NCBI GenBank assembly: GCA_021818615.1
Contig: JAKATT010000136.1
Location: forward strand, 37,981 to 101,980
Source: Actinomycetes bacterium
Lineage (GTDB): Bacteria > Actinomycetota > Acidimicrobiia > Acidimicrobiales > Bog-793
Reading direction: 5' to 3'
Length of the DNA stretch: 64,000 nucleotides
Shown: piece by piece, positions 37,463-56,238 of the stretch
Layout: every line of letters starts with the position of its first letter
Position numbering within the stretch: position 1 is the first letter of the stretch
Made by a program: the position numbers and the translations under genes
The notes under the pieces: model-generated
The model's input: only the letters and a program-made list of their open reading frames with translations
What the model was told of the DNA's origin: nothing
Database searches by the model: none

Positions 37463-38990
37463 GTGAAGACCACGGCGGCGCGTCGGGGCGATAAGACGTA
37501 CAGCTGCCTCTCGTTGGTGGAGGCCGTCCGCGAGAGGACCAAGGTGAAGCACCGGGTGCTCCTGCGTCTGGGCAAGGTGAGCGAGCTGCGCGACTCGGGC
37601 CAGCTGGACCGGATCATCGCTGCCCTTCGCCAGCACGCCGAGGGCACGTAGTTCGCAAGCAGCGAGCTGTCGAGCGACGGCTCGCCCAGCTTCGGCGCGA
37701 TGGCCGCGATCTACGCCTACTTCACCCGACTCGGACTCGACCGGCACTTCGCAGCCGTCGGACGCCGACGCAAGTCCGTCCGCCTCGCGACAACGGTGTA
37801 CGCGCTCTGTGCGAACCGACTCTGCGATCCGGCCTCCAAGCGGCGCACGGTCCTCGAGTGGCTCGACGACGTCGCCCTCCCCGCCGGTGTTGAGACCCCC
37901 TCCCTCGACCGCTGCTACCGCGCGCTCGACGCACTGAGCGCGTCGAGGCAGCTGACCGAAGAGGTGCTGTTCTCGGCGGTCACCGACCTCACCAACTTGG
38001 ATCTCCGCCTGTGCTGCTACGACTCACCTCCACCTACTTCGAGACCGACGGACGGGCGAGCGCTGCCTTCCCCGCGCGCGCCTTTGGCTACAGCCGCGAC
38101 CACCGGGGCGACCGGCCCCAGGTGATGATCGGGCTGCTCGTAACCGGAGACGGCATCCCGCTCGCCCACCAAGGTGTTCCCGGGCAACACGAACGACGCC
38201 TCAACGCTCAAAGGCGTGCTCTCGGACCTGAAGGAGCGCTTCTGTGTGGGGAGGATCGCGCTCATCGCGGATAGAGGAATCATCAGCGACGCCAACGTGT
38301 CTGCGCTCGGTGCGTCGGGCTTCGACCACGTGATGGCGACGAGGCTGCACCTGGAGCGTGACCGCCGTCCTGGGCAAGGCGCGCCGACCCGGCCAGGGGT
38401 CCCAGTCCCCGAAGCTCGCTCGGGGGCGACCGAAGTGGTCCACGACGGTTGGCGCTACGTCGTCGTGTTCTCGCCCGAGCGGTTCAACCGCGACAACCGC
38501 CGCCGGGAGGAGATCCTGGCCGAGACCGAGGACGCGCTCTGCGCCTCGGAAGAACGCGTGCGCTCGGGACGGCTGGGCGACCCCGCCAAGATCGGCGCGG
38601 CCGCCCAGCGGATCCTGTCTTCCTCGCCGATGGCCCGAGTGTTCGTGACCCACCTCCGAGAGGGCGCCTTCGCCCCGTTCAAGGTGCTGAAGGACTTCTT
38701 GGGACTGCGTCCGGTCTTCCACTTCAGCGAAGCACGCGTCCGTGGCCACATCGCGCCGTGCGTCATCGCGGCCGCGATCGAGGCGCTGATCGCCATCGAC
38801 CTCGAGCGCTCAGGGATCATGGACCCCGATCTTCCCCACCAGGTGATGACGCCACGACGAGCGCTCCGCGAGCTCGACCGCATCCGCGTTCACGAGCTCA
38901 GCGTGGGCAACGCCGGGTCGAAGTGGTCACCGCCGCAGCGGGCTCCAGGCGTCCATCCTCTCCGCCATGCACGTCGACACCGCCGGCTGG
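37463..38990 (+). pseudogene. IS1634-family (IS4-like) transposase, decayed
   Basis: KTYSCLSLVEAVRERTKVKHRVLLRLG..; in-frame TAG at 37649; frameshifts near 38015 and 38170 (TSTYFETDG..GYSRDHRGDRPQVMIGLLVTGDGIPLAHQ / VFPGNTNDASTL..IALIADRGIIS); apparent internal deletion before FKVLKDFLGLRPVFHF. Confidence 0.75.
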
Positions 38991-39184
38991 GACCGGGCCG
39001 CAATAGCCGACCAGGGAGCTCGGCCGACTTGGCGTCGAAGGACTGTCACCTGGTGGCGCAACACAAGGATCTCGGCGTCCTTCGCGAACGTGTCCCTCCT
39101 CGCCAACCCAAGGAGTCCGAAGGTGCGATGGACGAGTCGATACAGGAACGAGAGCACCACGGCGAGCAGCCTCGCCGACTCCAT
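38927..39184 (-). pseudogene. N-terminal fragment of another transposase/integrase (family not assigned)
   Basis: LLGLARRDTFAKDAEILVLRHQVTVLRRQVGR matches the N-terminal motif I recall from actinobacterial IS integrase-core proteins. No catalytic domain follows. Abuts the IS1634 remnant. Confidence 0.4.
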
Positions 39185-39430
39185 CCTGGCAGGTCAAGGC
39201 GGTGGCTGGGAGTTTCTGGACCCTTCAGGTCGCGATCGGCGTGCCCGGGATTCCTCGGTGTTCAAGCTTCGCGATTGCTCCGTCGAGGTCGTCGACCGCG
39301 ACCGTCACCATGGCATGCCCGGCACGACTCGGAGCGTCGACCATGCAGAGCCACGCAGCGTCGGGTCAGTATCGCCGGTGCCATCGCGCGCCGATCGGGT
39401 GACATGCAACCAGGGTGGCGCGCAGCCACG

Positions 39431-40120
39431 TCATCGCCGACGCATGGTGACCAGCCAGAGTCGGCGGGGTAAGCCGCCCTCCTCGAACGCGGTGACGCTG
39501 TCGAGATCGAAGCCATCGGCCAGGCGCTCGACGAGGGACCGATCGAAGAAGTGCACGACGAACCCGCCGTTCTCGTACAGGCTGTCGCCGAGCGAACGAC
39601 CGGCGCCGTAGTGGGCGTCGCCGGTGTGGCGCACGGTGTAGACGCACAGCCCCCCCGGGCGCAGTACCCGGCGTACCTCGGCGGCGAGGGCCGCGAGCTC
39701 GGGCGTGGTCAGCGCCATGTTGAAGAGCATGTGGGAGAAGCAGGCGTCGAGGGAGCTGTCGGCGAAGGGCAGCGGACGCCGCACGTCGTGCACCGCGGTG
39801 GCGAGACGCCCGGCGAGCTCGGGTCCCGCTGCGGCCGCCAGGCCGGCCACGGCAGTCGCGGCGTAGTCGAGGGCGTGGACCTCGAGACCTGCACGCAGCA
39901 GCTCCAGGGTGTCACGGCCCTGGCCGGCTCCGAGCTCGAGCACCTCCACGAGGCCTTCGCCGGCAAAGCGGCCCGCTGCGTAGCGACCGGCCTCGCTCGG
40001 CTCGGACCCGTACATCTCGGGGTTGGCACCGAGGGTCGTCTCCCACTGACGCCGCTGGTCGGCGATCAGGGTTCCGGTGGTCACGGTTCCGGTGGTCACC
40101 GGGACGTCGGTCCCGTTCAT
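39431..40120 (-). CDS. Class I SAM-dependent methyltransferase
   Basis: VLELGAGQGRDTLELL (motif I), LRPGGLCVYTV. Start at ATG 40120 (MNGTD). Contains the VTTGT x2 repeat. Confidence 0.8.
   Translation of the reverse strand: MNGTDVPVTTGTVTTGTLIADQRRQWETTLGANPEMYGSEPSEAGRYAAGRFAGEGLVEVLELGAGQGRDTLELLRAGLEVHALDYAATAVAGLAAAAGPELAGRLATAVHDVRRPLPFADSSLDACFSHMLFNMALTTPELAALAAEVRRVLRPGGLCVYTVRHTGDAHYGAGRSLGDSLYENGGFVVHFFDRSLVERLADGFDLDSVTAFEEGGLPRRLWLVTMRRR
40070..40099. repeat. 15-bp tandem duplication GGTTCCGGTGGTCAC x2
   Basis: Read directly. Encodes VTTGTVTTGT at the methyltransferase N-terminus. Confidence 0.85.
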
Positions 40121-40152
40121 CGGGTCGTTCGCTCGGGCTCGCAGGTCGCGCT

Positions 40153-40470
40153 TCACCTGCCCCTCGGCGGCATCCACCTGTCGGGCTCCGTGCGCAAGAG
40201 GCCATCGACGCGCTGCTCGAACTCGGCGATGTCGATCTCGCCGCGTGCGTAACGTTCCCGCAGCGTCATCATCGGGTCCTCGCGGGCCGGCGGCTCGGCC
40301 AGCTCCCCGGGAGCTCCCGGAGCGTGACCGAACCCGCAGCCGGGCCCCCACCCTCCAAGAGCACTACGAGATCGCTGGGACATCAGCCTCAGGCTCATGA
40401 AGAGAGCCACGGCGATCATCGCCGGGATCACGAGGAGCATCGGCCACGGGAAGCTTCCCCACATCATCAT
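40153..40470 (-). CDS. Small membrane protein with C-terminal SHOCT domain
   Basis: AGGAGGAAT immediately upstream of ATGATGATG. TM FPWPMLLVIPAMIAVALFMSL; SHOCT-like LRERYARGEIDIAEFEQRVDGL. Confidence 0.65.
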   Translation of the reverse strand: MMMWGSFPWPMLLVIPAMIAVALFMSLRLMSQRSRSALGGWGPGCGFGHAPGAPGELAEPPAREDPMMTLRERYARGEIDIAEFEQRVDGLLRTEPDRWMPPRGR

Positions 40471-40585: not shown

Positions 40586-40918
40586 TCAGGATCTCCCGTC
40601 GACGAGCAGTGCCCGGACCGCCTCGATGGCAGGGCGCAGCGCGTCGCTGGTGGCGCAGTAGTAGACGTAGGTGCCGCGGCGCTCGGCCCGCACGACTCCC
40701 CGGTCGCGCAGCACGCGCAGGTGGTGGGAGACGGCTGGCTGGCGAAGTCCCGCCGCCGTCGCGATCGCGCCGACGGAGACACACGCCGTGTCGAGGATCG
40801 AGAGGATCCGAAGCCGCGTCGGATCGCCGAGCGCCTGAAGCAGCTCGGCGAGCTGAGCTGCCTCGCCTCGGTCGATCGTCGGAGCTGCGTCCAGAAGCGT
40901 CGTCACGCTGTATATCAA
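40586..40918 (-). CDS. ArsR/SmtB-family transcriptional regulator
   Basis: LLQALGDPTRLRILSIL..VGAIATAAGLRQPAVSHHLRVLRDRGVVRAERRGTYVYY. TTG start lies inside an AT-rich repeat. Confidence 0.85.
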   Translation of the reverse strand: MIYSVTTLLDAAPTIDRGEAAQLAELLQALGDPTRLRILSILDTACVSVGAIATAAGLRQPAVSHHLRVLRDRGVVRAERRGTYVYYCATSDALRPAIEAVRALLVDGRS

Positions 40919-40940
40919 CAGATCTATATCTACAGATATT
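40911..40940 (-). promoter_or_regulatory. AT-rich repeat/palindrome overlapping the arsR start (candidate operator)
   Basis: Gene-sense: ATATCTGTAGATAT (palindrome), then AGATCTGTTGATATA. ATCTGTWGATAT occurs twice. Conspicuous in GC-rich DNA. Confidence 0.35.
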
Positions 40941-40978: not shown

Positions 40979-41674
40979 TCACCTCGTCGCCCGGGTGGTC
41001 TGCTCGTCGCGGCCGCCCCGCCACCGAGTGCCCGCCGCGACGGCGACGAAGCCCGCTTCGGATAGGGCTCCCTCTCGTACCTCCTCGTCCACCGGGGCGT
41101 CCATCGGGGCCTGGCGAAGGGTGGAGCGGGCGGCCACGACCTCGAATCCGGCACGTCCGAGCAGTCCGAGATGGTCGGCGAGTGTGAGGAAGTGGGCGCC
41201 CTGGTAAAAGGGGTGGCCGGCGCGCCGCTTCTCCTCATAGGCCTGACCCCAGGCGCTGTCACCGGGCACGAGCCCGACGACGAGGCTGCCGCCCGGGCGA
41301 AGCACCCGGCGGACCTCGTCGAGGAGCCCGGCCGGGTCGTCCGCGAAGCAGAGCGTGACGACGAGGATCACCACGTTGAACCCGTGATCGGCGAATGGCA
41401 GCTGCTCGCCGGCTCCCTGGACGACGCGCACGCCCCTCCTCGCGGCCAGGTCGAGCGGTGCGCGGGCGGGGTCGAGACCTACCTCGATTCCGAGCGCCGT
41501 GGCGAAGCGCCCGGAGCCGACCCCGACCTCGAGACGTGGTGGCCCCGTCCCAGACAACAGCGGGCGCAGGCACCTGAGCTCGAGGTCGAACAGCTTGCGC
41601 CCTGACGCCATGTCATACCAGGCGTCGTAGCGTGCGGCGAGGTCTTCGAAGGCCGATCCCACCGGCACGGCCAC
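40979..41674 (-). CDS. Class I SAM-dependent methyltransferase (type 11-like)
   Basis: RLEVGVGSGRFATAL (motif I), LPFADHGFNVVILVVTLCF, LRPGGSLVVG. Confidence 0.8.
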   Translation of the reverse strand: MAVPVGSAFEDLAARYDAWYDMASGRKLFDLELRCLRPLLSGTGPPRLEVGVGSGRFATALGIEVGLDPARAPLDLAARRGVRVVQGAGEQLPFADHGFNVVILVVTLCFADDPAGLLDEVRRVLRPGGSLVVGLVPGDSAWGQAYEEKRRAGHPFYQGAHFLTLADHLGLLGRAGFEVVAARSTLRQAPMDAPVDEEVREGALSEAGFVAVAAGTRWRGGRDEQTTRATR

Positions 41675-41678
41675 GCTC

Positions 41679-41906
41679 TCAGGGCCGGTCGACCCTCAGG
41701 TCCCGCAGCTTGCCCGTGACCTCCGCCAGCTCCTGTTCGAGGTCGCGCTGGCGCTCCTCGAGGATGCTCCGCCGGCTCGCTGTCTCCTCCTCGCGATCCC
41801 GGTGCGGGCCACCGCCGTGGCCGCCGCAGCAACCCGAGCCTCCGCAGCAGCCGTGCCCCCGGCCCCTCGGGCCCCGCTCGACGTCGTCTCGTTCCATCGT
41901 TCTCAT
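41679..41906 (-). CDS. Small Cys/Gly/His-rich coiled-coil protein (DUF5320-like)
   Basis: GPRGRGHGCCGGSGCCGGHGGGPH followed by coiled coil LEERQRDLEQELAEVTGKLRDL. 2-nt gap after padR, 4-nt gap before the methyltransferase. Family call from memory. Confidence 0.5.
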   Translation of the reverse strand: MRTMERDDVERGPRGRGHGCCGGSGCCGGHGGGPHRDREEETASRRSILEERQRDLEQELAEVTGKLRDLRVDRP

Positions 41907-41908
41907 TG

Positions 41909-42328
41909 TCAGTCCTTTCCGTGGTAGGTGTTGTCGATCTTCTCGGCGACCGCCCCGTAGCGCTCGAGCACTCGTGCGATCCGCGCCTGGCCGGACCGGA
42001 GCGACCCCGCCCAGGCGCCGAGCAACGCGGCACCCTCACCAGTGAGCTCGTAGATCCGCTTGAGCGGACCGGGGGCGTCTTCGCTCCACGAGGAGGCGAC
42101 GAGGCCTTCCCCTTCGAGCGAGCGCAGCAGCCGGTAGAGGTTGCCGAAGTCGACCCTGCCCTCTTCGAGGAGCTCCTCGAGCGCGTCAGCGAGCTCGTAG
42201 CCGTGGCTCGGGCCCTCCGCCAACAGCAGCAGCACGGCCGGCTCGGCAAAACGCTCGACCCGGGCCCGGACCTCGAAGCTGCCCGGGCCGACCCGGCAGC
42301 GGCAGCGTGGTTGACGATCGACCTTCAT
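41909..42328 (-). CDS. PadR-family transcriptional regulator
   Basis: RFAEPAVLLLLAEGPSHGYELADAL..FGNLYRLLRSLEGEGLV..KRIYELTGEG. N-terminal RCRCR. Start at 42328 or 42355. Confidence 0.8.
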   Translation of the reverse strand: MKVDRQPRCRCRVGPGSFEVRARVERFAEPAVLLLLAEGPSHGYELADALEELLEEGRVDFGNLYRLLRSLEGEGLVASSWSEDAPGPLKRIYELTGEGAALLGAWAGSLRSGQARIARVLERYGAVAEKIDNTYHGKD

Positions 42329-42405
42329 CGCTTTTCGAGTATAGGTGAACGACATAGGTGTCGTACATCCCCCGGGACCCCTCCAGGTCTTGTCCTGCGC
42401 CTGTG

Positions 42406-42429
42406 GATCTGTTATCCATAGATATATGG
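42406..42429 (+). promoter_or_regulatory. AT-rich motif overlapping the start of the ArsR-rhodanese gene (candidate operator)
   Basis: GATCTGTTATCCATAGATATATGG. Shares GATCTGTT and GATATA with the site at 40911-40940. ATG 42426 lies inside it, with no SD upstream. Confidence 0.35.
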
Positions 42430-43187
42430 AGTATCAGAACAGCGAGCAGGGGCGGGCCGATCTCTACGGGCAGCTGGCCCGGATCGGCAAGGTGGTCATG
42501 CACCCCAAGCGCATCGAACTGCTGGACCTGCTCTGCCAGGGCGAGCGCAGCGTTGACGCGCTCGCCGCGGCGAGCAGTCTCAAGCTCACGACGGCTTCGG
42601 CACATCTGCAGGTGATGCGCCAGGCCCGGCTCGTCGAGACCCGCCGGGAGGGGACTCGGGTCTACTACCGGGCGGCCGGCGAGGAGGTCTGCCGTCTCGT
42701 CACCGCGCTCAGCGACCTGGCCCGTGCCCGTCTCGCCGAGGTGGACCAGATCCTCCGGGCGATCGGCACCGACGCGCACGGCGCCGAGCGGGTGACCCGA
42801 GCCGAGCTGCTCGAGCGGGTCCTCGTGGGGGACGTCGTCGTCCTCGACGTGCGACCCCCCGAGGAGTACGCGGCCGGCCACATCGCCGGTGCGATCTCGC
42901 TCCCATTGGAGCAACTCGAGGCGCGGCTCGACGAGCTCGACCCCACGATCGAGGTTGTCGCCTACTGCCGGGGCCCGCTCTGCCTCCTCGCCCCTGAGGC
43001 CGTCGGCACCCTTCGCGAGCGTGGTCGCCGGGCACGCTGCCTCGAGGACGGCATGCCCGAATGGCGCCGTGCGGGCCTGCCCGTCGCCGCCGGGGTCGGG
43101 GTCGCCGCCGGGGTCGGGGTCGCCGCCGGGGTCGGGGTCGGGGTCGGGGCGGCGACGGCGCCCGATGGCACGCGGCGGTCGCGATGA
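42426..43187 (+). CDS. ArsR-family HTH fused to a rhodanese domain
   Basis: HPKRIELLDLLCQGERSVDALA..ASAHLQVMRQARLVETRREGTRVYY, then rhodanese VVVLDVRPPEEYAAGHIAGAISLP..VVAYCRGPLC (active-site Cys loop). Repeat-encoded (GVGVAA)n tail. Confidence 0.85.
   Translation: MEYQNSEQGRADLYGQLARIGKVVMHPKRIELLDLLCQGERSVDALAAASSLKLTTASAHLQVMRQARLVETRREGTRVYYRAAGEEVCRLVTALSDLARARLAEVDQILRAIGTDAHGAERVTRAELLERVLVGDVVVLDVRPPEEYAAGHIAGAISLPLEQLEARLDELDPTIEVVAYCRGPLCLLAPEAVGTLRERGRRARCLEDGMPEWRRAGLPVAAGVGVAAGVGVAAGVGVGVGAATAPDGTRRSR
43083..43149. repeat. 18-bp tandem repeat GTCGCCGCCGGGGTCGGG x3 plus GTCGGG partial units
   Basis: Read directly. Encodes AAGVGV repeats at the C-terminus of the ArsR-rhodanese protein, ending about 35 nt before the overlapping cysteine desulfurase start. 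Confidence 0.9.
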
Positions 43188-44338
43188 CCGCGGAGCGCGC
43201 TCCCGGCCTGATCTATCTCGACCACAACGCGACCACGCCACTGGCGCCGCAGGTGCTCGAGGCAATGCTGCCCTACCTGCGAGAGCACTTCGGCAACCCC
43301 TCCAGTGACCACGAGCCGGGTCGGCGCGCCCGTCGGGCCGTCGAAGAGAGCCGGGAGCTGGTTGCGTCGCTCATCGGTGCTGCACCCGGAGAGATCGTGT
43401 TCACCTCCGGTGGCACCGAGTCCAACAATCTCGCCATCCGCGGCTGTGCAGCATCCGCACCGCCGGGACGTCGCCGCATCGTCACCTCCCAGGTCGAGCA
43501 CCCGGCCACGAGCGGCCCTTGCGGGTTGCTGGAGGCACAGGGGTGGACGGTCACCCGCGTGCCGGTCACCCATACTGGGACGCTCGACCCCGTCACGGTC
43601 GACGCCGCGCTCGGCACCGACGTGGCGCTCTTGACGGTGATGCTCGCCCAGAACGAGACCGGGGCCGTCATGGCGATCCCCGCTCTGGCACAGGCGGCCC
43701 GGGGGTCAGGCAGCGTCGTGCATACCGACTCCGCCCAGGCCATCGGAAAGATCGCCGTCTCGGTCGAGATTCTCGGGGTCGACCTCCTCTCCATCGCCGG
43801 CCACAAGTGCTATGGCCCCAAAGGTGTCGGCGCGCTGTATGTCCGGCGCGGGACAACGCTCGAGCCCGTGATCCGCGGGGCCGGCCAGGAACGGGGACTA
43901 CGCCCCGGCACGGAGAACGTCGCCGGCATCGTCGGCCTCGGAGCCGCCTGTGAGCTCGCGCAGTCCCGCCTGACCGATGAGGGAGAGCGGATGCGGACGC
44001 TTCGCGACATGTTGTGGGGAGCCCTCTCGGAGCGCATCGCTGGCCTCGTCCGACACACCCCGATGGACACCAGCCTGCCCAATACCTTGACCGTGTCCTT
44101 CCCCGGCGCCCTGGGCAGGGACGTGCTGGGCCACGCCGAAGGCCTCGCCGCATCGACCGGGTCGGCCTGCCACGCTGGCGAGGAGACCCCCTCTGCCACG
44201 TTGCTCGCCATGGGCGTGCCACCCGACGTCGCACGTGGTGCCGTGCGGCTCTCGCTCGGCCGCGCCAATAGCCCGACCGAGATCGCCGCCGCCGTCGAGA
44301 TGCTCGTGAAAGCCCACCGGGAGGCAACCGGACCGTGA
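43184..44338 (+). CDS. Cysteine desulfurase (class V aminotransferase, NifS/IscS-like)
   Basis: IYLDHNATTP, FTSGGTESNNLAIRG, HTDSAQAIGK, SIAGHKCYGPKGVGALY (PLP Lys), STGSACHAG (catalytic Cys loop). ATGA overlap with the upstream gene. Confidence 0.9.
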   Translation: MTAERAPGLIYLDHNATTPLAPQVLEAMLPYLREHFGNPSSDHEPGRRARRAVEESRELVASLIGAAPGEIVFTSGGTESNNLAIRGCAASAPPGRRRIVTSQVEHPATSGPCGLLEAQGWTVTRVPVTHTGTLDPVTVDAALGTDVALLTVMLAQNETGAVMAIPALAQAARGSGSVVHTDSAQAIGKIAVSVEILGVDLLSIAGHKCYGPKGVGALYVRRGTTLEPVIRGAGQERGLRPGTENVAGIVGLGAACELAQSRLTDEGERMRTLRDMLWGALSERIAGLVRHTPMDTSLPNTLTVSFPGALGRDVLGHAEGLAASTGSACHAGEETPSATLLAMGVPPDVARGAVRLSLGRANSPTEIAAAVEMLVKAHREATGP

Positions 44339-44630
44339 CCGGCGACTGCCGATCGATCCATCGCAGGAAGAACCGCATTCGGGCCGGCTCCCCGCCGCTG
44401 GTTGCGAGCAGCTCCTGTCGCAAGCCCTTGCTGATGTGGCCCGAGAGCCTTCCACAGGAAGCTCGGCACCCATACCTCGCAGTGGTGAGCGCCCCCGACG
44501 TCTGCCGGATCGCCCGGCGGGCTGTCGGCACCGGAAGCCGAGCAGCACCGTGGCGCCAGCGGCGACCACGTGCGTTCACGAGCCGGTGGGGCACCTCAGC
44601 CAGCCGGAGCCTCGAATACAAGGAGCGAGC

Positions 44631-44981
44631 GTGAAGATCCTCGTCATCTTGAACGACCCACCGTATGGGACCGAGCGCTCCTACAACGGGCTTCGTCTCG
44701 CGGGCGCCCTCGCCAAGCGCGAGGGCGTCGAGCTGAAGGTGTTCTTGTTCGGCGACGCCGTCGGCTGCGCGCTCGCCAAGCATAAGCTGCCCGACGGCTA
44801 CTACCACCTCGATCGGATGGTGGCTTCCGTCGTTCGCCACGGCGGCCAGATCGGCTGCTGTGGCACGTGCATGGACGCCCGTGCCTTCACCGACGACAAG
44901 CTCGTCGAGGGCGCCCGGCGGTCGAGCCTCGAGGACGCGACCGAGTGGACGATCTGGGCCGACAAGGTCGTGAGCTTTTGA
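44631..44981 (+). CDS. DsrE/TusD-like sulfur-relay family protein
   Basis: AAGGAG 6 nt before GTG 44631. VKILVILNDPPYGTERSYNGLRLA..VFLFGDAV..IGCCGTCMDARA. Confidence 0.7.
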   Translation: MKILVILNDPPYGTERSYNGLRLAGALAKREGVELKVFLFGDAVGCALAKHKLPDGYYHLDRMVASVVRHGGQIGCCGTCMDARAFTDDKLVEGARRSSLEDATEWTIWADKVVSF

Positions 44982-45105
44982 GCACGACGGGTCCGCGTCA
45001 CACGGGGGCACACCTCGCCGCGGTGACGAAGCGGCAGTTCACGAGCTCGACGAGATTCCTTGGTGACATCGAACGCGGGGCTCTCCTCGACAACGAGGTC
45101 ACACG

Positions 45106-46326
45106 GTGACCGGGCGCGTGCGGGTAGTCATCGTCGGAGGTTCCTTCGGCGGCCTCACCACCGCCTACGAGCTACGCCGCCAACTCTCACCCGAGCGGGC
45201 GGAGATCACCCTCGTCGCCAAGGAGGAGCGCTTCACCTTCGTCCCCTCGCTCACCTGGGTGGTGACGGGGTCGCGCACCCTCCCCCAGATCTCCTTCGGC
45301 CTCGCCAGGCCGCTCGCCGCCAAGCAGGTCCACTTCGCCCACGGGACCGTGACCGGCATCGACACCGAGGCCAAGGTGCTGACGACGACGAGCGGCGAGC
45401 ACCACTACGACTTCCTCGTCGTGGCCACCGGACACCGCAGCGCCAACGAGGCCGTCGAGGGCCTCGGGCCCTTCGACGGGCCGGGGCACTCGCCCATGTC
45501 CCCTCCCGAGGCCGAGGAGCTCGCCATAGCGGTTCGTGCTCTGCTCGCCGACCCCGGCCCGATCGTCGTCGGCGCAGCGCCCGGTGCGAGCTGCATCGGA
45601 CCGGCCTACGAGCTCGCCTTCGGGCTCGATCACCTGCTGCGCCGGCACAAGCTGCGCCACCTCGTGCCGATGAGCTTCGTCACCCCCGAGCCCTACCTGG
45701 GCCACATGGGCATGGGCGGCGCCGGCAAGATCCGCCAGCTCCTCGAAGGCGAGCTCGAGGAGCGCGACATCTCCTACCGAACCTCCGCGGCGGTGACCAA
45801 GATCACCGCCGACGCCGTGGATGTGGCGGGGGAGAGGTCGATCCCCTCGGTGCTCTCGATCGTCATCCCGCCACTCGCCGGGGTCGAGGCGGTCGCCACG
45901 AGCCCAGGGCTCGCCAACCCCAAGGGCTTCATCGCCGTCGACGCCCACTACCGTCACCGGAGTGCAGTGGGCGTCTACGCAGTCGGGGTGGCCGTTGCGC
46001 TTCCACCCGTCGGCGAGACCCCGGTGCCGGTCAACTTCCCGAAGACCGGCCACATGACCGAGCAGATGGCACAGATCGCCGCCTCCGACATCGCAACCCG
46101 GATAGCTGGAGCAAAGCCTCGCAGCTTCGAGCTGTCCGCCCGCTGCGTGCTCGACATGGGCAACAGCGGCGCCTACCTGGCGGTCGATCCCGTCCGCCCG
46201 CCGCGAGACAAGATCCCGACCGTGTCCGAGGGACCCCAGTGGCTGCTCGCCAAGCGGGTCTTCGAACAAGCCTACCTCTGGCACGCCAAGCACGGCCGGC
46301 GGATGCCGACCGCGATCGGGTGGTGA
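45106..46326 (+). CDS. Sulfide:quinone oxidoreductase-like FAD-dependent oxidoreductase
   Basis: VVIVGGSFGGLTTA (FAD); PGASCIGPAYELAF and ARCVLDMGNSGA (positions of the SQR redox cysteines); FPKTGHMTEQ. NDH-2 is less likely, as there is no second dinucleotide motif. Confidence 0.7.
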   Translation: MTGRVRVVIVGGSFGGLTTAYELRRQLSPERAEITLVAKEERFTFVPSLTWVVTGSRTLPQISFGLARPLAAKQVHFAHGTVTGIDTEAKVLTTTSGEHHYDFLVVATGHRSANEAVEGLGPFDGPGHSPMSPPEAEELAIAVRALLADPGPIVVGAAPGASCIGPAYELAFGLDHLLRRHKLRHLVPMSFVTPEPYLGHMGMGGAGKIRQLLEGELEERDISYRTSAAVTKITADAVDVAGERSIPSVLSIVIPPLAGVEAVATSPGLANPKGFIAVDAHYRHRSAVGVYAVGVAVALPPVGETPVPVNFPKTGHMTEQMAQIAASDIATRIAGAKPRSFELSARCVLDMGNSGAYLAVDPVRPPRDKIPTVSEGPQWLLAKRVFEQAYLWHAKHGRRMPTAIGW

Positions 46327-46329
46327 CAG

Positions 46330-46818
46330 GTGCGCCGACGCCGAGGGCCTGAGCCCCTCGTCCTCGGCGCGGTTCTCTCGGTGCTGTCAGGACAAGGGAC
46401 CTCGGTGCGGGTCCTGTGCTTCACCCACGCCGAAGCCTCGACGCTCGATGGAGCGAGCCGGCCCCTCGGTGCAGTCCGGGCCGAGGAGCTCCGAGCTGCG
46501 GCCGCTGTGCTCGGGGTCGACGAGGTCACCTTGCTGTCGTACCCAGATGGCGATCTCGGCGAGATCCTGAAGGGTGCAGTGCCGCTACGAGTTGCTCGCG
46601 CCGCTCCACGCCTGGGCGAGCGGGAGAAGCTCGTTCACGCGGCGGCGCGAAGGCGAGCGATCGAGCTGCTGCATCTGCCTCGCGGCGGCCAACCGTCGCC
46701 GGCACGCCGGGGACCGGTCGAGCGCGACACCGACGAGCACACGCTGGAGCGGTCCACCCGGGGCTGTGTGACTGTGGCTGCTGGAACGGCGAGGACTGCT
46801 GGATGCCATGTTCGCTGA
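46330..46818 (+). pseudogene. PIG-L/LmbE-family deacetylase-like fragment (degenerate)
   Basis: VRVLCFTHAEASTL..LGAVRAEELRAAAAVLGVDEVTLLSYPDGDL resembles the family core. The N-terminal HPDDE motif and the C-terminal half are not recognisable. Confidence 0.3.
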
Positions 46819-50524: not shown

Positions 50525-53500
50525 TCAAATCCTCTCCACGGCAACTCGCGTCTCGAAGTAGGCCTGGCCGCCGGTGACCGCGTCCATGCACCCGACCGTC
50601 CACCCGTCGGCACCGGCGAGGGAGGTGTCGAGCCGGATGACCGAGTTGAGCCGCACCGCAGTCCCCCGGGTGGCGTCGCCGCCGACCGCACTGCCGTCGA
50701 TCGTCGTGCTCGCAGCCCCGGATTGCCAGTGCCCGTAGCCGTGGGGGAAGGCGACGACGCCCGGTCGCACGCCGGGGAGCAGCCGCAGGCGGCCGACGGG
50801 TGCCCGCTCGCGGGGCAGCGTCGCGGAGTAGACACGCACGAGGTCTCCCGCTTCGAACCCGCGGCGGGCGGCGTCGCTCGGGCACATGTCGATGAACCCC
50901 TCCGGCATGAGCTCGGTGAGCCAGGGATCGACGATGCACTGGCTGTGGCTGAGGATCGTCGACTTGTGGGTGCTGAGCACGAAGGGGAAGCGCGAGGCGG
51001 GATCGAGCTGCTCGAAGCTCCTCCCTGCCAGGTCGGTCATCGGCGCGAAACGGGCGGTGCCGCAGAAGCGCTCGCCGCTGAGCGAGTTGCGGGTCGTCGC
51101 CACGTCGGGGTTGTAGAGCTGGCAGGGGAGCCCGCCCTGTCCGTAGCGGTAGGTCATCCACGCCGGGCCGGTGGCCGGGTTCGCTGGAAGCCTTACCGCC
51201 GACAGGAACGACGCCCGCACCTCGGCAGGGCTGATCTGGTTGGTGGCACGGGCGTAGTGCTCCAAGCCGGTGTCGAGCACGAGGTTCTGGACGATCCTGC
51301 CCAGGCGGGAACTGCTGCCCGTGCTCGGTAGGTACGCGACCTCGTAGTCCTCGAAGCGCCCGCCACGCGCCAGCACGTAGGCGACCTTCGGCCACTCGGA
51401 GCTTCTGATCGCGCGGCGGCGGGTGGCAATCAGCGGCGCGACTGCGGCAAGCTCGGCCCTGCTCGCGTTTGGGACGGGTCCCAGGTTGTGCAGAGCTCCG
51501 TCACGCCAGGCCTGGAACGTCGGGTCGTAGGCGACGTTGGCCACCATCTTCAGGTAGTAGTCCTCACGGGTGTCGAGGGAACCCCCCTCGGCGAAGGCGT
51601 GCTCGCCGAAGCCCGGCAGGCCGAGCGCTTTGGCGACGTCGATGAGGAACTGCTCCATGCACATCGGGTAGCCGCTGGCTGTGTGCCCGGTGAGGGGCTC
51701 GATCACGGGCTGGCGGACGCCCTGGGCCTTGGTCGGGACGACGGGCCAGACGCCCGGGAACTCCCACGACTCGAGGAAGGTCGTGTCCGGCACGACGTAG
51801 TCTGCGAAGACGGCAGTCTCCGACATCACGATGTCGGTGGCGATGAAAAGCGGCACCCTGTCGAGGTCGGTGATGAGCCGCTGGAAGGGGAGGGCGGGGT
51901 CGTCGCAGCCGCCGATCGCTGGCGCGCTCCAGGCCGGGTTGGCGGCATGTGACAGGACGATCTTCGCCCCGTACGGGTAGCCCTCGCGGATCCCGGCGAA
52001 CATCTCCGGCCACTGCCCGCCGCCGAAAGGGAACCAGGGCCGCCGCGCCGGGTAGGGATTGACGCCGGCCTTCACTTTGGCGGCGTACTCGCCGGAGGTC
52101 TCGTAAGCGACGCCGCTACGCGAGATCGGGACGCCGGCAGGGACGTTGGCGGGCTGGCCCGGCCAGGACCCGAGCGCGTACGGAGCCCCGGAGCTCCCTC
52201 CGGCGTAGTCCGCCGTCCCGCCGCCGACCACGTAACCGCCCATCCAATCGAGGCTGCCGACGAGGAAGTTGAGCGTCATGACAGCCCGGCAGGCGTAGAA
52301 GCCGTTCGTGTGCATGGCGGGACCGCGCCCGTAGTCGGCCACCGCCTGGCGGCCGTAGCTGGTGAACTCGGCCGCCAAAGTGGCGATCAGCTCCGGGGGG
52401 ACCCCCGCCTGGGTGGCGTACTGCTCGAGGCTGAGCGCGCGGGCCTCGCCGTAGAGGAGCTGGAACCCGGTAGCGCACCTGACGCCGTTAACCACGGTTG
52501 TGTTGGTGTCGAGCGCGCCGGCCGGCCAGAGCTCACCGGATCGTGCGCCGGTGGCGGGCACGGGCACCCTCGTCGAAGGGTCGATCACGACGCCCGCCTG
52601 CCCGGAGCCGGAGGCAAGCCCCATGGAGCTTCCACCGCCACCTCCCATCTTCTCTGGGGAGAGCCCCGCCTCGGCGGGCGTGAGGAACGATCCGTAGCGG
52701 GGATGCTGCGGGTCGGAGACGACGAGCCAGGTGGCATTGGTGAAGCTCGGCATGCCCGCCTTCGCCGCCGCCTCCTGGCTCGGGCACGACAGGTAGGCGG
52801 CGTCGTAGGCGGCCTGCTCGATGATCGAGCGGATCATCCCCATGGCGAGGGCGCCGTCGCCGCCCGGGCGGACGTAGACGCAGCGATCGGCGTACATCGA
52901 CGAGTTGTTCGCCCGGACGTCGACGACTACGAAACGTAGGGATCTGGAAGCAGACGCCTCGGCGACCTTGCGCCCGAGCGCCTGCATCGGGAACCCTCCC
53001 GTCGTAGGGTTCAGCCCGAAGAAGATCACGTACTGGGCGTTGGCGAGATCCGGCTTGAGCGGGTCCGTCATCCCGTCGAGCGAGAGCATCGTCGCCTTCA
53101 TGCGGGGGAGGTCGCAGACGGCGTCGGCCGCTTCGAGGTTGACCGTCCCGAACGAGGACGCGAAACGTGAGAGGAGATCCGTCTGGCCGTTCTCGGCCAT
53201 TCCGTAGAAGACGACGAGGCCGTTCGTCTCCGGGCCGAGACCTGGGTCGGCCGGGTCGATCGGCCGGTAGCGCCCGCGACCATGGTCGTAGAGACCGGCG
53301 AAGCCCTCGACCTGACGGCGCTCTTCCCCCGCCACCGCCGAGAAGAGCGTCCCGCCGGCGACGACCTCGTCGACGAGCTGCTCCCAAGAGACGGCCTCGA
53401 AACGCCCCGAGCCCCGCGGCCCGCTCCGCTTGAGGGGAAGGGTCAGCCGGTAGGGGTCGTAGACGGTCTGGCGGCCCGCTTGCCCCCGGTTGCAGAGCGA

Positions 53501-55081
53501 GTGCGGAGTCGCCCACACCGCCGCCGAGGCGGCAGGCGTGGCATACCGGGCGTGCGGCTCGGTGCTGGCGGGGTGGTAGGGATTCCCGTCCAACTTCTGA
53601 AGGACGCCCCCGAAGACCTCGGCGGCGAGGCCACAGTCGCTCCCGCACTGCTTGCAGACGCTGTAGATGGTGCTCACGCCGGTGAGGGTCGCCGGGCGGT
53701 CCGGGTAGACGAAGGTGCCCCTGCGATGGAAGAGGTCGCCCACCCATGGCGCCGCACCCCAGCTGGCGGCGGCAACGCCGCCGCTCACCATCCCGGTACG
53801 GGCGAGGAAAGCCCTGCGGCCAAAACGTGCCCGGCCGTCCGCCGCCGGCTCGAGGCGATGAGATGACGGAGCGGAAGGAGTGCCCACCGGTGCAGGCAAG
53901 AGCGTGCCGGCAGGCTCCGTGTCCCGAGCAGCCGCCTCGCGCCAGGGCAACAGCCAGGAGAAGAAGAGGAACAGCAAGACGGCGATGGCGAAGACCCCGA
54001 GCACCGTCTGGACGGAGTCGAAGCCGGTGAGCGGCACCGACATGTGGACGATGCTCGAGGAGACCTTCGACTCCATTTGCCCGCCGAGCACGACGTTGTA
54101 GCGCATCGCGTAGACCCCGACCACGACGCAGAGGGCGATGGCGGCTCCCCCGAGCACGGAACGCCTGACCGGCCGGACGAGGAATAGGAGCAGCGGCAGC
54201 ACGATCCCCACTCCGAGCTGGAGGCCGAGGTAGCTGAAGGCGTGCGGTCCGTGCAGGAAGACCGAGCTCACGCCCTCGCTCACCGGTCCCTGCGTGTAGG
54301 CGGAGACGCCACTCGTGACGAGGTCGACGACGTCCAAGAAGCCGTCGAGGGCGAGGAAGCCCACCAGCCAGAAAAGGAGCGTCCGGGTCAGCTCACGGTC
54401 GCACTGATCGCGGTAGAAGCGTCCCGTGAGCCCGTAGACGAGATACATGAAGGCCATCCCGGAGACGACCGCCGAGACGATGAAGAGCACGGGCATGAGC
54501 GCCGTCGACCAGATCGCCCGTGCCTTCACCGCCCCGAAGACGAAACCGATGTAGCCGTGGAACAAGAAGGCGAGCAGGATGCCGATCGCCGAGAGGCCGA
54601 CGAGCACCTTGGCGTCTCGCCGCTCGGCCCGCTCGCTCAGGTCGCTGCTCCCGAGAGCGAGCAGCGAGGAGAGCCGCGCCCGCCAACCGGTCCCGCCGGC
54701 GCGCATGACGTTCTTGCGCCGAAAGGCGAAGTAGGTCTCGACGGTCATGAGCACGACGTAGCTCAGCCAGATCAAGGTGAAATCGCCGAGCGGCGACCAA
54801 GGGATGTGCGGGCGGGTGAAGAGCTCGAAGGCGTTGACGGGTTGGCGGGCGTCGGCGAGCACGGTCACGGGGGCGGCGAGAAGGAGGGAGAAGCTGACGA
54901 TGAGGGCGAGAGGGGCGAGCCTTGCGAGGCGATGCACCTTGAAAACGTGGCTGAGCGAGGCGACAACGAACGAGCCGGCGACGAGGCCGGAGATGAACGG
55001 GTAGGTGGCGATGAGCAGTCCCCAGTAGACGTTCTCGAGGGCACCTCCTCGAAGGCCCGGGTCGAGCGCGAGCATTCTCAT
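50525..55081 (-). CDS. Fused NrfD-type membrane anchor + internal Tat motif + bis-MGD molybdopterin oxidoreductase catalytic subunit (TtrC-TtrA-like fusion), 1518 aa
   Basis: ATG 55081 (GGAGGGG upstream). Residues 1-380: nine hydrophobic segments of NrfD/PsrC type. Residues 421-447: GRRAFLARTGMVSGGVAAASWGAAPW. Then FS0 motif CKQCGSDC..C, GNPYHP, ALAMGMIRSI, and ~1090 residues to ..AVERI. No stop anywhere in the frame. Confidence 0.8.
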   Translation of the reverse strand: MRMLALDPGLRGGALENVYWGLLIATYPFISGLVAGSFVVASLSHVFKVHRLARLAPLALIVSFSLLLAAPVTVLADARQPVNAFELFTRPHIPWSPLGDFTLIWLSYVVLMTVETYFAFRRKNVMRAGGTGWRARLSSLLALGSSDLSERAERRDAKVLVGLSAIGILLAFLFHGYIGFVFGAVKARAIWSTALMPVLFIVSAVVSGMAFMYLVYGLTGRFYRDQCDRELTRTLLFWLVGFLALDGFLDVVDLVTSGVSAYTQGPVSEGVSSVFLHGPHAFSYLGLQLGVGIVLPLLLFLVRPVRRSVLGGAAIALCVVVGVYAMRYNVVLGGQMESKVSSSIVHMSVPLTGFDSVQTVLGVFAIAVLLFLFFSWLLPWREAAARDTEPAGTLLPAPVGTPSAPSSHRLEPAADGRARFGRRAFLARTGMVSGGVAAASWGAAPWVGDLFHRRGTFVYPDRPATLTGVSTIYSVCKQCGSDCGLAAEVFGGVLQKLDGNPYHPASTEPHARYATPAASAAVWATPHSLCNRGQAGRQTVYDPYRLTLPLKRSGPRGSGRFEAVSWEQLVDEVVAGGTLFSAVAGEERRQVEGFAGLYDHGRGRYRPIDPADPGLGPETNGLVVFYGMAENGQTDLLSRFASSFGTVNLEAADAVCDLPRMKATMLSLDGMTDPLKPDLANAQYVIFFGLNPTTGGFPMQALGRKVAEASASRSLRFVVVDVRANNSSMYADRCVYVRPGGDGALAMGMIRSIIEQAAYDAAYLSCPSQEAAAKAGMPSFTNATWLVVSDPQHPRYGSFLTPAEAGLSPEKMGGGGGSSMGLASGSGQAGVVIDPSTRVPVPATGARSGELWPAGALDTNTTVVNGVRCATGFQLLYGEARALSLEQYATQAGVPPELIATLAAEFTSYGRQAVADYGRGPAMHTNGFYACRAVMTLNFLVGSLDWMGGYVVGGGTADYAGGSSGAPYALGSWPGQPANVPAGVPISRSGVAYETSGEYAAKVKAGVNPYPARRPWFPFGGGQWPEMFAGIREGYPYGAKIVLSHAANPAWSAPAIGGCDDPALPFQRLITDLDRVPLFIATDIVMSETAVFADYVVPDTTFLESWEFPGVWPVVPTKAQGVRQPVIEPLTGHTASGYPMCMEQFLIDVAKALGLPGFGEHAFAEGGSLDTREDYYLKMVANVAYDPTFQAWRDGALHNLGPVPNASRAELAAVAPLIATRRRAIRSSEWPKVAYVLARGGRFEDYEVAYLPSTGSSSRLGRIVQNLVLDTGLEHYARATNQISPAEVRASFLSAVRLPANPATGPAWMTYRYGQGGLPCQLYNPDVATTRNSLSGERFCGTARFAPMTDLAGRSFEQLDPASRFPFVLSTHKSTILSHSQCIVDPWLTELMPEGFIDMCPSDAARRGFEAGDLVRVYSATLPRERAPVGRLRLLPGVRPGVVAFPHGYGHWQSGAASTTIDGSAVGGDATRGTAVRLNSVIRLDTSLAGADGWTVGCMDAVTGGQAYFETRVAVERI

Positions 55082-55086
55082 GTCGC

Positions 55087-56157
55087 TCACTCCCCTCCGA
55101 GGGGTGTCTGCAGGACCATCTGGCCGCTGAGCTCGGCGTACTGATCGGTGTTGGTGCCGACGGCGTAGGGGTAAACGGTGTCGAAGGCGGTGGCGGCGCT
55201 CACGAGCTCGCCGTTCAGGTTGATGTAGAAGATCTGCGGATCCGTCCCCTCCTCGGGAAGGAGCGTGATCGTCGGGTACTGGGCAAGGAGCTGGGAGGCG
55301 GCGCTCTGCGGGTCGTTGAGGTCGCCGAAGACCCGCGCCCTTCCGACGCACGAGGTGACGCAGGCAGGGAGGAGTCCCCGGTCGAGGCGTTGCACGCAGA
55401 AAGTGCACTTGTCCGCCGTCTCCTGCACGCTGTGGAAATATCGGGCGTCGTACGGGCAGGCCTGGATGCAGATCCCACAGCCGATGCACTTCGTGTAGTC
55501 GACAAGGACCGGGCCATCCCCGCGCTTGAAGGTGGCCTGCACCGGGCAAACGATGACGCAGGGCGGGTTGTCGCAGTGGTTGCAAAGTCGGGGGAGCGCC
55601 CACCGCTTCACCGTCGGCGTGAAGCGCCCGTCTTCGGTGACGATGGAGCCCGACGGATCCCGGACCATCGTGCCGAGCTCGACCACCTCCACCCAGGTGC
55701 GGTAGTTGCCCGGCGGCACGTTGTTCTCGCTCTTGCAGGCGACCACGCAGGCCTGGCAACCGATGCAGCGGCGCAGGTCGATGACCATCCCCCAGTGGTG
55801 CGATGCGGCGGACTCGTCGGGGAAGGCCTCGTAGTAGGCGGGCTGGTCGCGCGAGTTGAGGATGGTGGGCACCCAGGCGCCCGGCCGGCTCCAACCGTCT
55901 GGCCGGGCGTTCAGCTCGTCGACCGTCCAGCTCGCCCAGCGGGGCTTGAGCGCGAGCACCTTGGAGAGGGGAAGGCGGCCCTTCAGGCGGGTCGGAAGGA
56001 GCGCTGCGGCGGTCCGTCCGGCCCGCAAGCGGGTGACGACGCCCCCGGACGCGGCAGCGACCGTCATCCCGAGCGCAGCTGTGAGAGCCTGGCGGCGCGT
56101 GAACGCGACCCGCTCGCCGGTTGCTCGGGAGTCGTCCGGTCTCGATCTCGCCCCCAT
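55087..56157 (-). CDS. Tat-targeted 4Fe-4S ferredoxin subunit (TtrB/PsrB/NrfC-like)
   Basis: Tat signal FTRRQALTAALGMTVAAASGG. Cys clusters: CIGCQACVVACKSEN, CNHCDNPPCVIVCP, CIGCGICIQACPYDA, CTFCVQR..ACVTSC. About 90-residue insert between the signal and the first cluster. Confidence 0.9.
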   Translation of the reverse strand: MGARSRPDDSRATGERVAFTRRQALTAALGMTVAAASGGVVTRLRAGRTAAALLPTRLKGRLPLSKVLALKPRWASWTVDELNARPDGWSRPGAWVPTILNSRDQPAYYEAFPDESAASHHWGMVIDLRRCIGCQACVVACKSENNVPPGNYRTWVEVVELGTMVRDPSGSIVTEDGRFTPTVKRWALPRLCNHCDNPPCVIVCPVQATFKRGDGPVLVDYTKCIGCGICIQACPYDARYFHSVQETADKCTFCVQRLDRGLLPACVTSCVGRARVFGDLNDPQSAASQLLAQYPTITLLPEEGTDPQIFYINLNGELVSAATAFDTVYPYAVGTNTDQYAELSGQMVLQTPLGGE

Positions 56158-56238
56158 CGGCTCTCATGCTCCGCCGTCCCGGCAGTCCCCACATCGGCGA
56201 AGCCGCTTACATCGGCCGGTAATCCCGCCTAGGCGATC

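Follow-up and report, generated by a model that had tools for sequence, protein, structure and literature searches.

A putative sulfide-responsive gene cassette headed by an ArsR::rhodanese fusion regulator in an actinobacterial metagenome-assembled genome

In the present study, a 64-kb stretch of DNA (64,000 nucleotides, referred to as the window) from a 69% G+C actinobacterial metagenome-assembled genome (MAG; GenBank assembly GCA_021818615.1, contig JAKATT010000136.1) was analysed for a run of four genes on its + strand at 42426-46326. This run encodes an ArsR-type winged-helix regulator fused to a rhodanese domain (ArsR::rhodanese), a group-I cysteine desulfurase, a YchN-type protein of the DsrE family and a sulfide:quinone oxidoreductase (SQR); the SQR protein is encoded identically on contig JAPTXY010000311 of GCA_028063625.1. 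We propose that the cassette is an autoregulated operon responsive to sulfide or sulfane sulfur, with the fused rhodanese domain as the sensor. Judged from sequence and structure comparisons, the probability of this reading is about 0.6. The domain identities, catalytic residues, cysteine-pair invariance, gene order and the operator with its positions were obtained computationally, and the features concerned are the following.

42426-43187, + strand: ArsR-type winged-helix::rhodanese fusion regulator, 253 amino acids (Pfam, NCBIfam, PDB and AlphaFold2, AF2)
42966-42983, + strand: rhodanese active-site loop C181-R-G-P-L-C186, candidate sensing cysteine pair
42415-42430, no strand: operator-like inverted repeat TCCATAGATATATGGA (TCCAT-N6-ATGGA), the right arm of which contains the regulator ATG
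42389-42418, + strand: putative promoter with a conserved CTTG (TTG at 42390-42392) and the hexamers TGTTAT (42410-42415) and TATCCA (42413-42418)
43184-44338, + strand: group-I (NifS/IscS-like) cysteine desulfurase dependent on pyridoxal phosphate (PLP) (Pfam Aminotran_5, NCBIfam)
44631-44981, + strand: YchN-type DsrE-family protein, 116 amino acids (Pfam DsrE, PDB 1jx7)
45106-46326, + strand: SQR, type I-like, 406 amino acids (PDB matches, redox cysteines C163 and C347)

The first-pass annotation of this DNA had described four sulfur-related genes on the + strand here, with the desulfurase ATGA-coupled to the regulator. The four genes are borne out by the Pfam, NCBIfam and PDB matches, and the regulator TGA and the desulfurase ATG do share an ATGA at 43184-43187. 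Furthermore, the window proteins were compared by tblastn with 80 related loci (cited by L numbers), 22 of them close (70-91% identity) and 58 distant (47-60% identity). The order regulator, (desulfurase), YchN, SQR recurs in the 22 close loci, which come from other assemblies, and the four-gene arrangement is therefore not due to chance.

The regulator consists of two recognisable domains. Pfam detected HTH_5 (30.8 bits, cut-off 22) and Rhodanese (56.2 bits), and the NCBIfam ArsR/SmtB model NF033788 gave 70.9 bits against a cut-off of 55, which identifies the first domain as an ArsR-type winged helix-turn-helix (wHTH). In the AF2 model (mean pLDDT 76, with both domains good) the wHTH at about residues 26-83 is followed by a long helix (86-115), a short linker of low confidence, the rhodanese domain (122-219) and a disordered tail. 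The model superposes on SmtB, CzrA and HlyU, and by Foldseek the wHTH fold is similar to 6o8k and 3pqk. No full-length relative of the regulator was found among the solved PDB structures; the closest match of the N-terminal domain is PDB 2kko/3gw2, a fragment of M. bovis Mb0332, that is Rv0324 (E 6e-25).

Residue conservation was evaluated in an alignment of 81 regulator-family sequences from Actinomycetota, Proteobacteria, Myxococcota, Chloroflexota, Acidobacteriota, Verrucomicrobiota and Dormibacterota. We found that Y180, C181, R182, G183 and C186 are invariant in 81/81 (loop Y-C-R-G-x-x-C). The first-pass annotation had named loss of the catalytic cysteine in close homologues as a point that would count against it, and C181 is kept in all of the sequences, across several phyla. 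The remaining cysteines C37, C89 and C205 are not conserved (C37 is Ala in 49 and C89 in 37 of the 81), and the sensing cysteine pair of SqrR/BigR is thus absent. In the same 81 sequences, no Cys or His of the ArsR domain reaches 95% conservation, and the alpha-3N and alpha-5 metal sites are likewise not conserved; consequently the domain has no evident sensing site of its own, and a metal sensor is rejected because no ligands are conserved. The rhodanese loop is of the six-residue sulfurtransferase type and not the CX5R type of Cdc25/Acr2, and the NCBIfam BigR 'sulfite-sensing' model gave the regulator 54 bits against a cut-off of 155. By these comparisons the regulator classes neither as a metal sensor nor as a member of the SqrR/BigR clade in its defining sense. 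The rhodanese active site, with the second cysteine five residues on, would be the only plausible reactive site; C186 is not a general rhodanese feature, which suggests a resolving or switch role for it. The earlier idea that the fused sulfurtransferase domain could receive the signal is strengthened by the invariance of C181/C186 together with the absence of an ArsR-domain cysteine pair and of metal ligands, and further by the operator-like repeat described next, which is placed on the regulator's own start and, in other genomes, ahead of sulfur genes.

The 140 bp upstream of the regulator were aligned in 15 close loci, and an AT-rich block abutting the regulator start codon was conserved in 15/15, including the loci that lack the divergent PadR gene described below. 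TCCATAGATATATGGA is the sole exact match to TCCAT-N6-ATGGA in the window. In distant actinomycete loci the corresponding block reads TACAATATTCCATGGATTTATGGAGGATGCCATGG, and the core shared by both is TCCAT-N6-ATGGA. When sites with at most one mismatch were sought in 977 kb of related loci, 49 were found, 44 of them at a regulator start; three of the remaining five stand just upstream of a desulfurase gene (L027, 8 nt from its start), a gene for a persulfide dioxygenase (PDO) joined to rhodanese (L062) and a YchN gene (L034). The element TCCAT-N6-ATGGA is proposed as the candidate operator of the regulator family. The operator had first been read as the palindrome TTATCyATAGAT and linked to a site at 40926-40939; this reading was dropped, the family-wide core being TCCAT-N6-ATGGA. 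As for the putative promoter at 42389-42418, CTTG is kept in the 15-locus alignment and TGTTAT aligns with the TACAAT of Streptomyces loci; the sigma-70 consensus scan was empty, and the leader would be very short or absent.

A second line of evidence on the operator comes from the Rv0324 locus of Mycobacterium tuberculosis, which was taken from CP005386 (L083) and contains a frameshifted Rv0324 allele; the protein search for full-length Rv0324 returned truncated clusters only. In the CP005386 assembly both Rv0324 and Rv0331 are frameshifted, possibly by sequencing errors. Rv0324 (Mb0332) resembles the window regulator in its two-domain architecture, in its loop (YCRGAYC, of the form YCRGxxC), in identity (51-54% in both domains) and in having a related inverted repeat upstream. 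The neighbourhood is likewise similar. Rv0323c, divergent to Rv0324, encodes a PIG-L protein sharing 62% identity with the PIG-L found after SQR in a close relative, and Rv0325/0326 (L083 6732-7367), directly downstream of Rv0324, is 52% identical to the class-I methyltransferase at 39431-40351 of the window. Rv0331 is an SQR-family flavoprotein of the type shared with flavocytochrome c sulfide dehydrogenase (FCSD) and has both cysteine contexts. The locus differs from the window in that the SQR-like Rv0331 is 4 kb off and of another SQR/FCSD type, and in that no desulfurase or YchN gene is adjacent. In 12.5 kb of L083 the motif occurs twice, against 0.20 occurrences expected. The site TCCAAAGATATATGGA (L083 10796-10818) precedes the Rv0331 ATG by about 25 nt and equals the window site at 15 of 16 positions, and the region upstream of Rv0324 (L083 5960-6030) holds TCCAATGAGCAATGGA and a second TTCC...TGGAA element touching the ATG. 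The presence of the motif upstream of both Rv0324 and Rv0331 gives independent support to the element as the regulator's operator and to SQR-type genes as its targets. In the literature searched, Rv0324 figures solely as a transcription factor of regulatory networks, hypoxia or bedaquiline tolerance, and neither ligand nor mechanism is given; no paper naming it together with Rv0331 was found there, subscription journals being thinly covered.

The first-pass annotation had also named grouping of the flavoprotein with NDH-2 or CoA-disulfide reductases as a point that would count against it. It groups with the solved SQRs instead. The best comparisons are with the A. ferrooxidans SQR (3sz0; 258 bits, 1.2e-75, 39% identity over 396 residues) and the Aquifex aeolicus SQR (3hyv; 245 bits, 1.3e-71), followed by type V (83 bits), FCSD (about 60), NDH-2 (about 58) and type II (human SQOR, about 38). 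The corresponding E-values are about 1e-12 to 6e-15 for NDH-2 and 4e-4 or worse for CoA-disulfide/persulfide reductases. The type I-like assignment is a provisional one, drawn from solved structures, which types III, IV and VI lack. The window enzyme aligns end to end with the type I SQRs 3sz0 and 3hyv and keeps the equivalents of A. ferrooxidans Cys160, Cys356 and His198. The enzyme has both redox-cysteine contexts recognised in the first annotation, PGASCIGPAYE (C163) and ARCVLDMG (C347), and they are unchanged in 15/15 relatives.

The desulfurase matches Pfam Aminotran_5 at 1.2e-70. The best NCBIfam match is NifS TIGR03402 (412 bits, cut-off 530); neither this cut-off nor those of IscS (313-322 bits, cut-offs 548-643) are reached, and by these scores the enzyme is a separate group-I subfamily below the NifS/IscS equivalog level. 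The motifs H207-K208 (PLP lysine K208) and G326-S327-A328-C329 (catalytic C329) are invariant in 25/25 relatives. The third protein of the run had been called DsrE/TusD-like. Membership in the DsrE family is confirmed (Pfam DsrE 79.5 bits, full length); the TusD part did not hold, since the TusD/DsrE equivalog TIGR03012 gave 19 bits against a cut-off of 89 and the protein is of YchN type. Its sole solved relative is E. coli YchN (PDB 1jx7, E 1.7e-18), with which it agrees in length, in full-length alignment and in the C-x-x-C motif, and the motif residues C77-x-x-C80 are invariant in 17/17 relatives. The window protein differs from E. coli YchN in being coupled to SQR, the two genes being adjacent or abutting in relatives. 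To our knowledge, E. coli YchN has no established function. The GTG start of the YchN gene is preceded at 8 nt by AAGGAG, and no TusB/C or DsrF/H genes were found near the cassette.

In the 22 close cassettes YchN and SQR are almost always kept, and in six of them the YchN stop abuts the SQR start. The desulfurase directly follows the regulator in 13 and is missing from nine; it is an optional member of the cassette. The intergenic gaps in these loci are much shorter than those of the window (293 bp between desulfurase and YchN, 124 bp between YchN and SQR) or are zero. The nearest relative, L004, looks like the window minus the desulfurase and half of the 293-bp spacer. Two MAGs contain paralogous cassettes: in LSA5.bin114 (L003 and L011) the desulfurase occurs in one copy only, and DBS2-4.bin87 (L012 and L017) has two regulator-YchN-SQR cassettes.

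The ArsR::rhodanese fusion is not a one-off but a large existing family of Rv0324 type. At E<=1e-10 the matches number more than 5,000 clusters (90% identity); at E<=1e-30 there are 341 clusters (50% identity), most of them of 220-235 amino acids and spanning both domains. In the genome scan, members were found in Streptomyces, Kitasatospora, Amycolatopsis, Lentzea and Rhodococcus, in Beta- and Gammaproteobacteria, and in Myxococcota, Chloroflexota, Acidobacteriota, Verrucomicrobiota and Dormibacterota; the family also extends to Mycobacterium and to many uncultured lineages. Linkage to sulfur genes (SQR, YchN, desulfurase, PDO-rhodanese, MFS and TusA neighbours) was seen across 81 loci. Clustering of the neighbours in the 58 distant loci gave an MFS transporter near the regulator in 41 and a divergent gene for a CstB-like PDO of about 450 amino acids in 30; this protein joins an MBL-fold persulfide dioxygenase to two rhodanese domains (PDB 3tp9 1e-68; S. 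aureus CstB 3r2u 9e-43). A cysteine desulfurase was present in 16, with a TusA gene after it in nine, and YchN in nine. Persulfide dioxygenase and transporter, which are catabolic or detoxifying, are thus the commonest partners of the family. It had been suggested that a desulfurase takes the place of PDO between sensor and SQR. This holds for the window itself and not more widely, as the desulfurase is optional in the close loci and CstB-like PDO-rhodanese proteins are so common in distant relatives that the desulfurase is no family-wide substitute for PDO. In a Dormibacteraceae locus (L040) the order is regulator, YchN and a type II-like SQR, and the presence of a different SQR type in the same order points to independent recruitment of the same function. 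Three SQR-family types are therefore tied to the regulator family, namely type I-like (window), type II-like (L040) and FCSD/SQR-like (Rv0331).

As to how the operon is repressed, what induces it, what happens chemically at C181/C186 and which partners exchange sulfur, we infer the following course. A dimer of the ArsR::rhodanese protein would bind TCCAT-N6-ATGGA, which overlaps its own start codon and promoter, and keep the operon repressed. When sulfane sulfur rises, a persulfide would form on the rhodanese catalytic cysteine C181, the sulfur being supplied either by SQR, as polysulfide or persulfide derived from H2S, or by the desulfurase, as persulfide derived from cysteine. C186 could then attack the C181 persulfide, giving an intramolecular di-, tri- or tetrasulfide, and the change would be relayed through the long alpha-5 helix and the linker to the winged helix, so that the affinity for DNA drops and the operon is derepressed. 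In the derepressed state SQR would oxidise sulfide with a quinone as acceptor, the YchN-type protein (C77-x-x-C80) may serve as a protein acceptor or carrier of persulfide, and the cysteine desulfurase, where present, may feed persulfide sulfur to the rhodanese and YchN carriers.

We know of three architectures among the characterised bacterial persulfide sensors, those of CstR, SqrR/BigR and FisR, in which sensing is by cysteines of the regulator fold or by a separate domain of another kind.

SqrR, BigR and YgaV are ArsR-type sulfide or persulfide sensors, and in E. coli ygaV is in an operon with the rhodanese gene ygaP (PMC9774250), an arrangement that looks like a split version of the fusion in the window. 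Like the window regulator, SqrR (Rhodobacter capsulatus), BigR (Xylella/Agrobacterium) and YgaV (E. coli) are ArsR-type wHTH repressors beside sqr, PDO or rhodanese genes and are probably autoregulated. The window regulator differs from them in lacking the cysteine pair of the ArsR fold, its invariant cysteines being only in the rhodanese domain, and in its operator, which in its family is TCCAT-N6-ATGGA. The cst operon of S. aureus (CstR; CstA, CstB, SQR, TauE) is similar in being under a repressor and in combining SQR with carriers of rhodanese and DsrE type, and genes for CstB-like PDO-rhodanese proteins adjoin distant relatives of the window regulator. It is distinguished by its CsoR-type CstR, where the window has an ArsR-type regulator, and by a rhodanese on the carrier and not on the regulator; moreover, the window has neither PDO nor TauE and places a desulfurase inside the operon. 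In S. aureus, CstA strips persulfide from SufS, which shows that a cysteine desulfurase can supply persulfide to sulfurtransferases of sulfide detoxification (PMC5480029). A survey of the rhodanese domains of sqr-pdo operons lists SQR-fused, PDO-fused and free forms only, and regulator-fused forms are unlisted (PMC9163753). No functional study of ArsR-rhodanese fusions was found in the literature searched, from which subscription journals are mostly absent, so that prior work is possible; the family is widespread, annotated and apparently uncharacterised.

Several points weigh against an autoregulated sulfane-sulfur operon. The pTM of the AF2 model is 0.53, which leaves the relative orientation of the wHTH and rhodanese domains undefined. 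In the SQR, Met occupies the position of A. ferrooxidans Cys128 (Aquifex Cys124) and Glu that of His132, and the chain is about 25 residues shorter than in the type I enzymes, the alignment ending at residue 398 of 406 as compared with 409 of 437 in A. ferrooxidans. One conserved amphipathic helix (K383, E387, L391) is present at its C-terminus and the second is missing; with the C-terminus so shortened, the quinone and membrane coupling of this SQR is putative. A targeted search of the window yielded no PDO, TusA, family-associated MFS transporter or sulfite exporter/TauE, and the absence of PDO and exporter leaves the fate of the sulfane sulfur without explanation. Scanning of the window for sigma-70 promoters and terminators gave nothing usable and did not delimit transcription units, and internal promoters could lie in the gaps of 293 and 124 bp. 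Finally, induction of the desulfurase by sulfane sulfur is not obviously the logic of detoxification, as this enzyme makes persulfide.

In a different reading, the cassette is a relay for sulfur mobilisation or cysteine catabolism. The desulfurase would pass sulfur to the rhodanese domain and YchN for thio-cofactor synthesis or cysteine breakdown, the regulator would report the loading, possibly with its persulfidated form as the one that binds DNA, and SQR would recycle leaked sulfide. Desulfurases of the IscS type are persulfide donors to rhodanese domains and TusA, the desulfurase of the window is ATGA-coupled to the regulator, regulator and desulfurase (with or without TusA) recur together in distant actinomycetes, and the L027 motif is next to a desulfurase start. 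We nevertheless consider this unlikely, because the desulfurase is missing from nine of the 22 close cassettes while YchN and SQR are nearly always kept, both cassette forms occur in one MAG (L003, L011), the commonest partners across the family are catabolic or detoxifying, and the operon contains no biosynthetic acceptor enzyme. It is also improbable that the rhodanese domain is merely catalytic and that the regulator senses sulfite, thiosulfate, cyanide, heme or redox state, or that the divergent PadR is in control. Against this stand the lack of a conserved Cys/His ligand in the ArsR domain, the second invariant cysteine, and the many loci from which PadR is gone and in which operator and cassette are kept; speaking for it, enzymes of sqr-pdo operons commonly carry fused rhodanese domains, which are catalytic (PMC9163753), the ArsR domain does score on the BigR 'sulfite-sensing' model, and PadR is conserved beside the cassette in several close loci.

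A resistance island for metals or metalloids (As/Se/Te), with the rhodanese/Cdc25 fold as an arsenate-reductase-like domain, is brought to mind by the second ArsR gene (40586-40918), two class-I methyltransferases and an Nramp transporter nearby, and by weak NCBIfam matches to ArsM-type and selenoprotein families. We hold it very unlikely, given that neither metal site is conserved, that the loop reads CRGPLC followed by L and is of sulfurtransferase type, that the operon partners are without exception sulfur enzymes whose catalytic residues are intact, and that the Nramp and molybdoenzyme genes are not conserved neighbours. Mere adjacency of the four genes, with neither co-transcription nor a functional link, could be argued from the two long gaps and from the want of terminator and promoter calls. 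This is hardly credible in view of the order kept in 22 loci, where the gaps are much shorter or absent, the recruitment of a different SQR type into the same order, and the regulator motif ahead of an unlinked SQR-like gene in M. tuberculosis.

Beyond the autoregulated, sulfane-sulfur-responsive operon itself, the ArsR::rhodanese proteins may form a distinct class of sulfane-sulfur sensors of many phyla, with a C-R-G-x-x-C switch and a TCCAT-N6-ATGGA regulon made up of SQR, PDO, desulfurase/TusA and YchN genes, which would include Rv0324 controlling Rv0331. This wider proposal is tentative, and we lean slightly against it at present. As a corollary of it, the YchN-type DsrE protein may be a dedicated protein acceptor of the sulfane sulfur made by SQR, and the recurrent pairing of YchN with SQR suggests a function for the long-uncharacterised YchN family. 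If the proposal is true, a rhodanese active site would provide enzyme-coupled loading of the signal, which could explain specificity for sulfane sulfur over other oxidants, and Rv0324, a known drug-tolerance regulator, would be linked to H2S and persulfide physiology. The operator ahead of Rv0331 offers a regulatory link open to immediate test, and the model supplies an operator, a cysteine pair and a predicted regulon reaching M. tuberculosis.

Further features within and around the cassette are the following.

43083-43140, + strand: perfect tandem repeat (18 bp x 3.2) that codes for the regulator's disordered C-terminal tail, (VAAGVG)n
44339-44630, no strand: non-conserved intergenic spacer, 293 bp between desulfurase and YchN
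46330-46818, + strand: remnant of a PIG-L (LmbE-type) deacetylase, only 46351-46566 being homologous
40979-42355, - strand: divergent unit of PadR (41909-42355), a Gly/Cys-rich protein of 75 amino acids (41679-41906) and a class-I methyltransferase (40979-41674) (Pfam)

The (VAAGVG)n tail has pLDDT <50 and is not conserved in relatives. On a sister metagenome contig (L001) the regulator has 247 amino acids as compared with 253, and the copy number of the repeat may differ between samples. The spacer resembles only that of L004 (82% DNA identity, neutral-looking). An open reading frame (ORF) of 99 amino acids at 44335-44634 is probably not a gene, its similarity being confined to L004, and the spacer was rejected as an RNA element (no Rfam match, fold z-score -1.56). 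The PIG-L remnant matches residues 54-125 of the intact orthologue of 254 amino acids in L003, and the AHPDDE region is missing; intact PIG-L follows SQR in L003, L005, L008 and L019. The association with PIG-L may point to a connection with low-molecular-weight thiols, for instance mycothiol.

The divergent unit adjoins the cassette in many close loci, with the operator about 60 bp from the PadR start, and its membership in the regulon is uncertain. A separate inverted repeat, TGAACGACA/TGTCGTACA, is located at the PadR start (42346-42367). The 75-residue protein has GCCGGSGCCGG followed by a coiled-coil-like tail and gave no Pfam match. Class-I methyltransferases dependent on S-adenosylmethionine are recurrent beside the regulator, one of 231 amino acids in at least eight close loci; another, of 248 amino acids, is the one 52% identical to Rv0325/0326. 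Their substrates could be thiols, sulfide or metalloids. The second ArsR gene (110 amino acids, 40586-40918, - strand) is followed by a gene for a SHOCT-domain protein and a class-I methyltransferase (39431-40351), and L008 and L010 contain the same ArsR-SHOCT-methyltransferase unit. The second ArsR gene has a near-palindrome, ATATCTACAGATAT, at 40926-40939, some 10-20 nt ahead of its start, which resembles part of the ArsR-rhodanese block, lacks TCCAT-N6-ATGGA and is probably the second ArsR's own operator.

The downstream Nramp, DUF3105 and NarJ/NrfD-molybdopterin/4Fe-4S genes were considered as part of the module and rejected, since they are not conserved neighbours and thus fall outside it. 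Among them, a protein of 1518 amino acids (50525-56160 region, - strand) fuses an NrfD/PsrC-type anchor to a molybdopterin oxidoreductase, with a twin-arginine-like RRAFLART in mid-chain. The genes flanking it encode a 4Fe-4S subunit, a NarJ-like chaperone and DUF3105, and it resembles a Psr/Ttr-type reductase of sulfur or another oxyanion. At 37700-39472 (+ strand), two consecutive ORFs of 141 and 432 amino acids have no Pfam match and a third-position G+C below that of their neighbours, and they may derive from a disrupted transposase or from foreign DNA inserted upstream of the methyltransferase genes.

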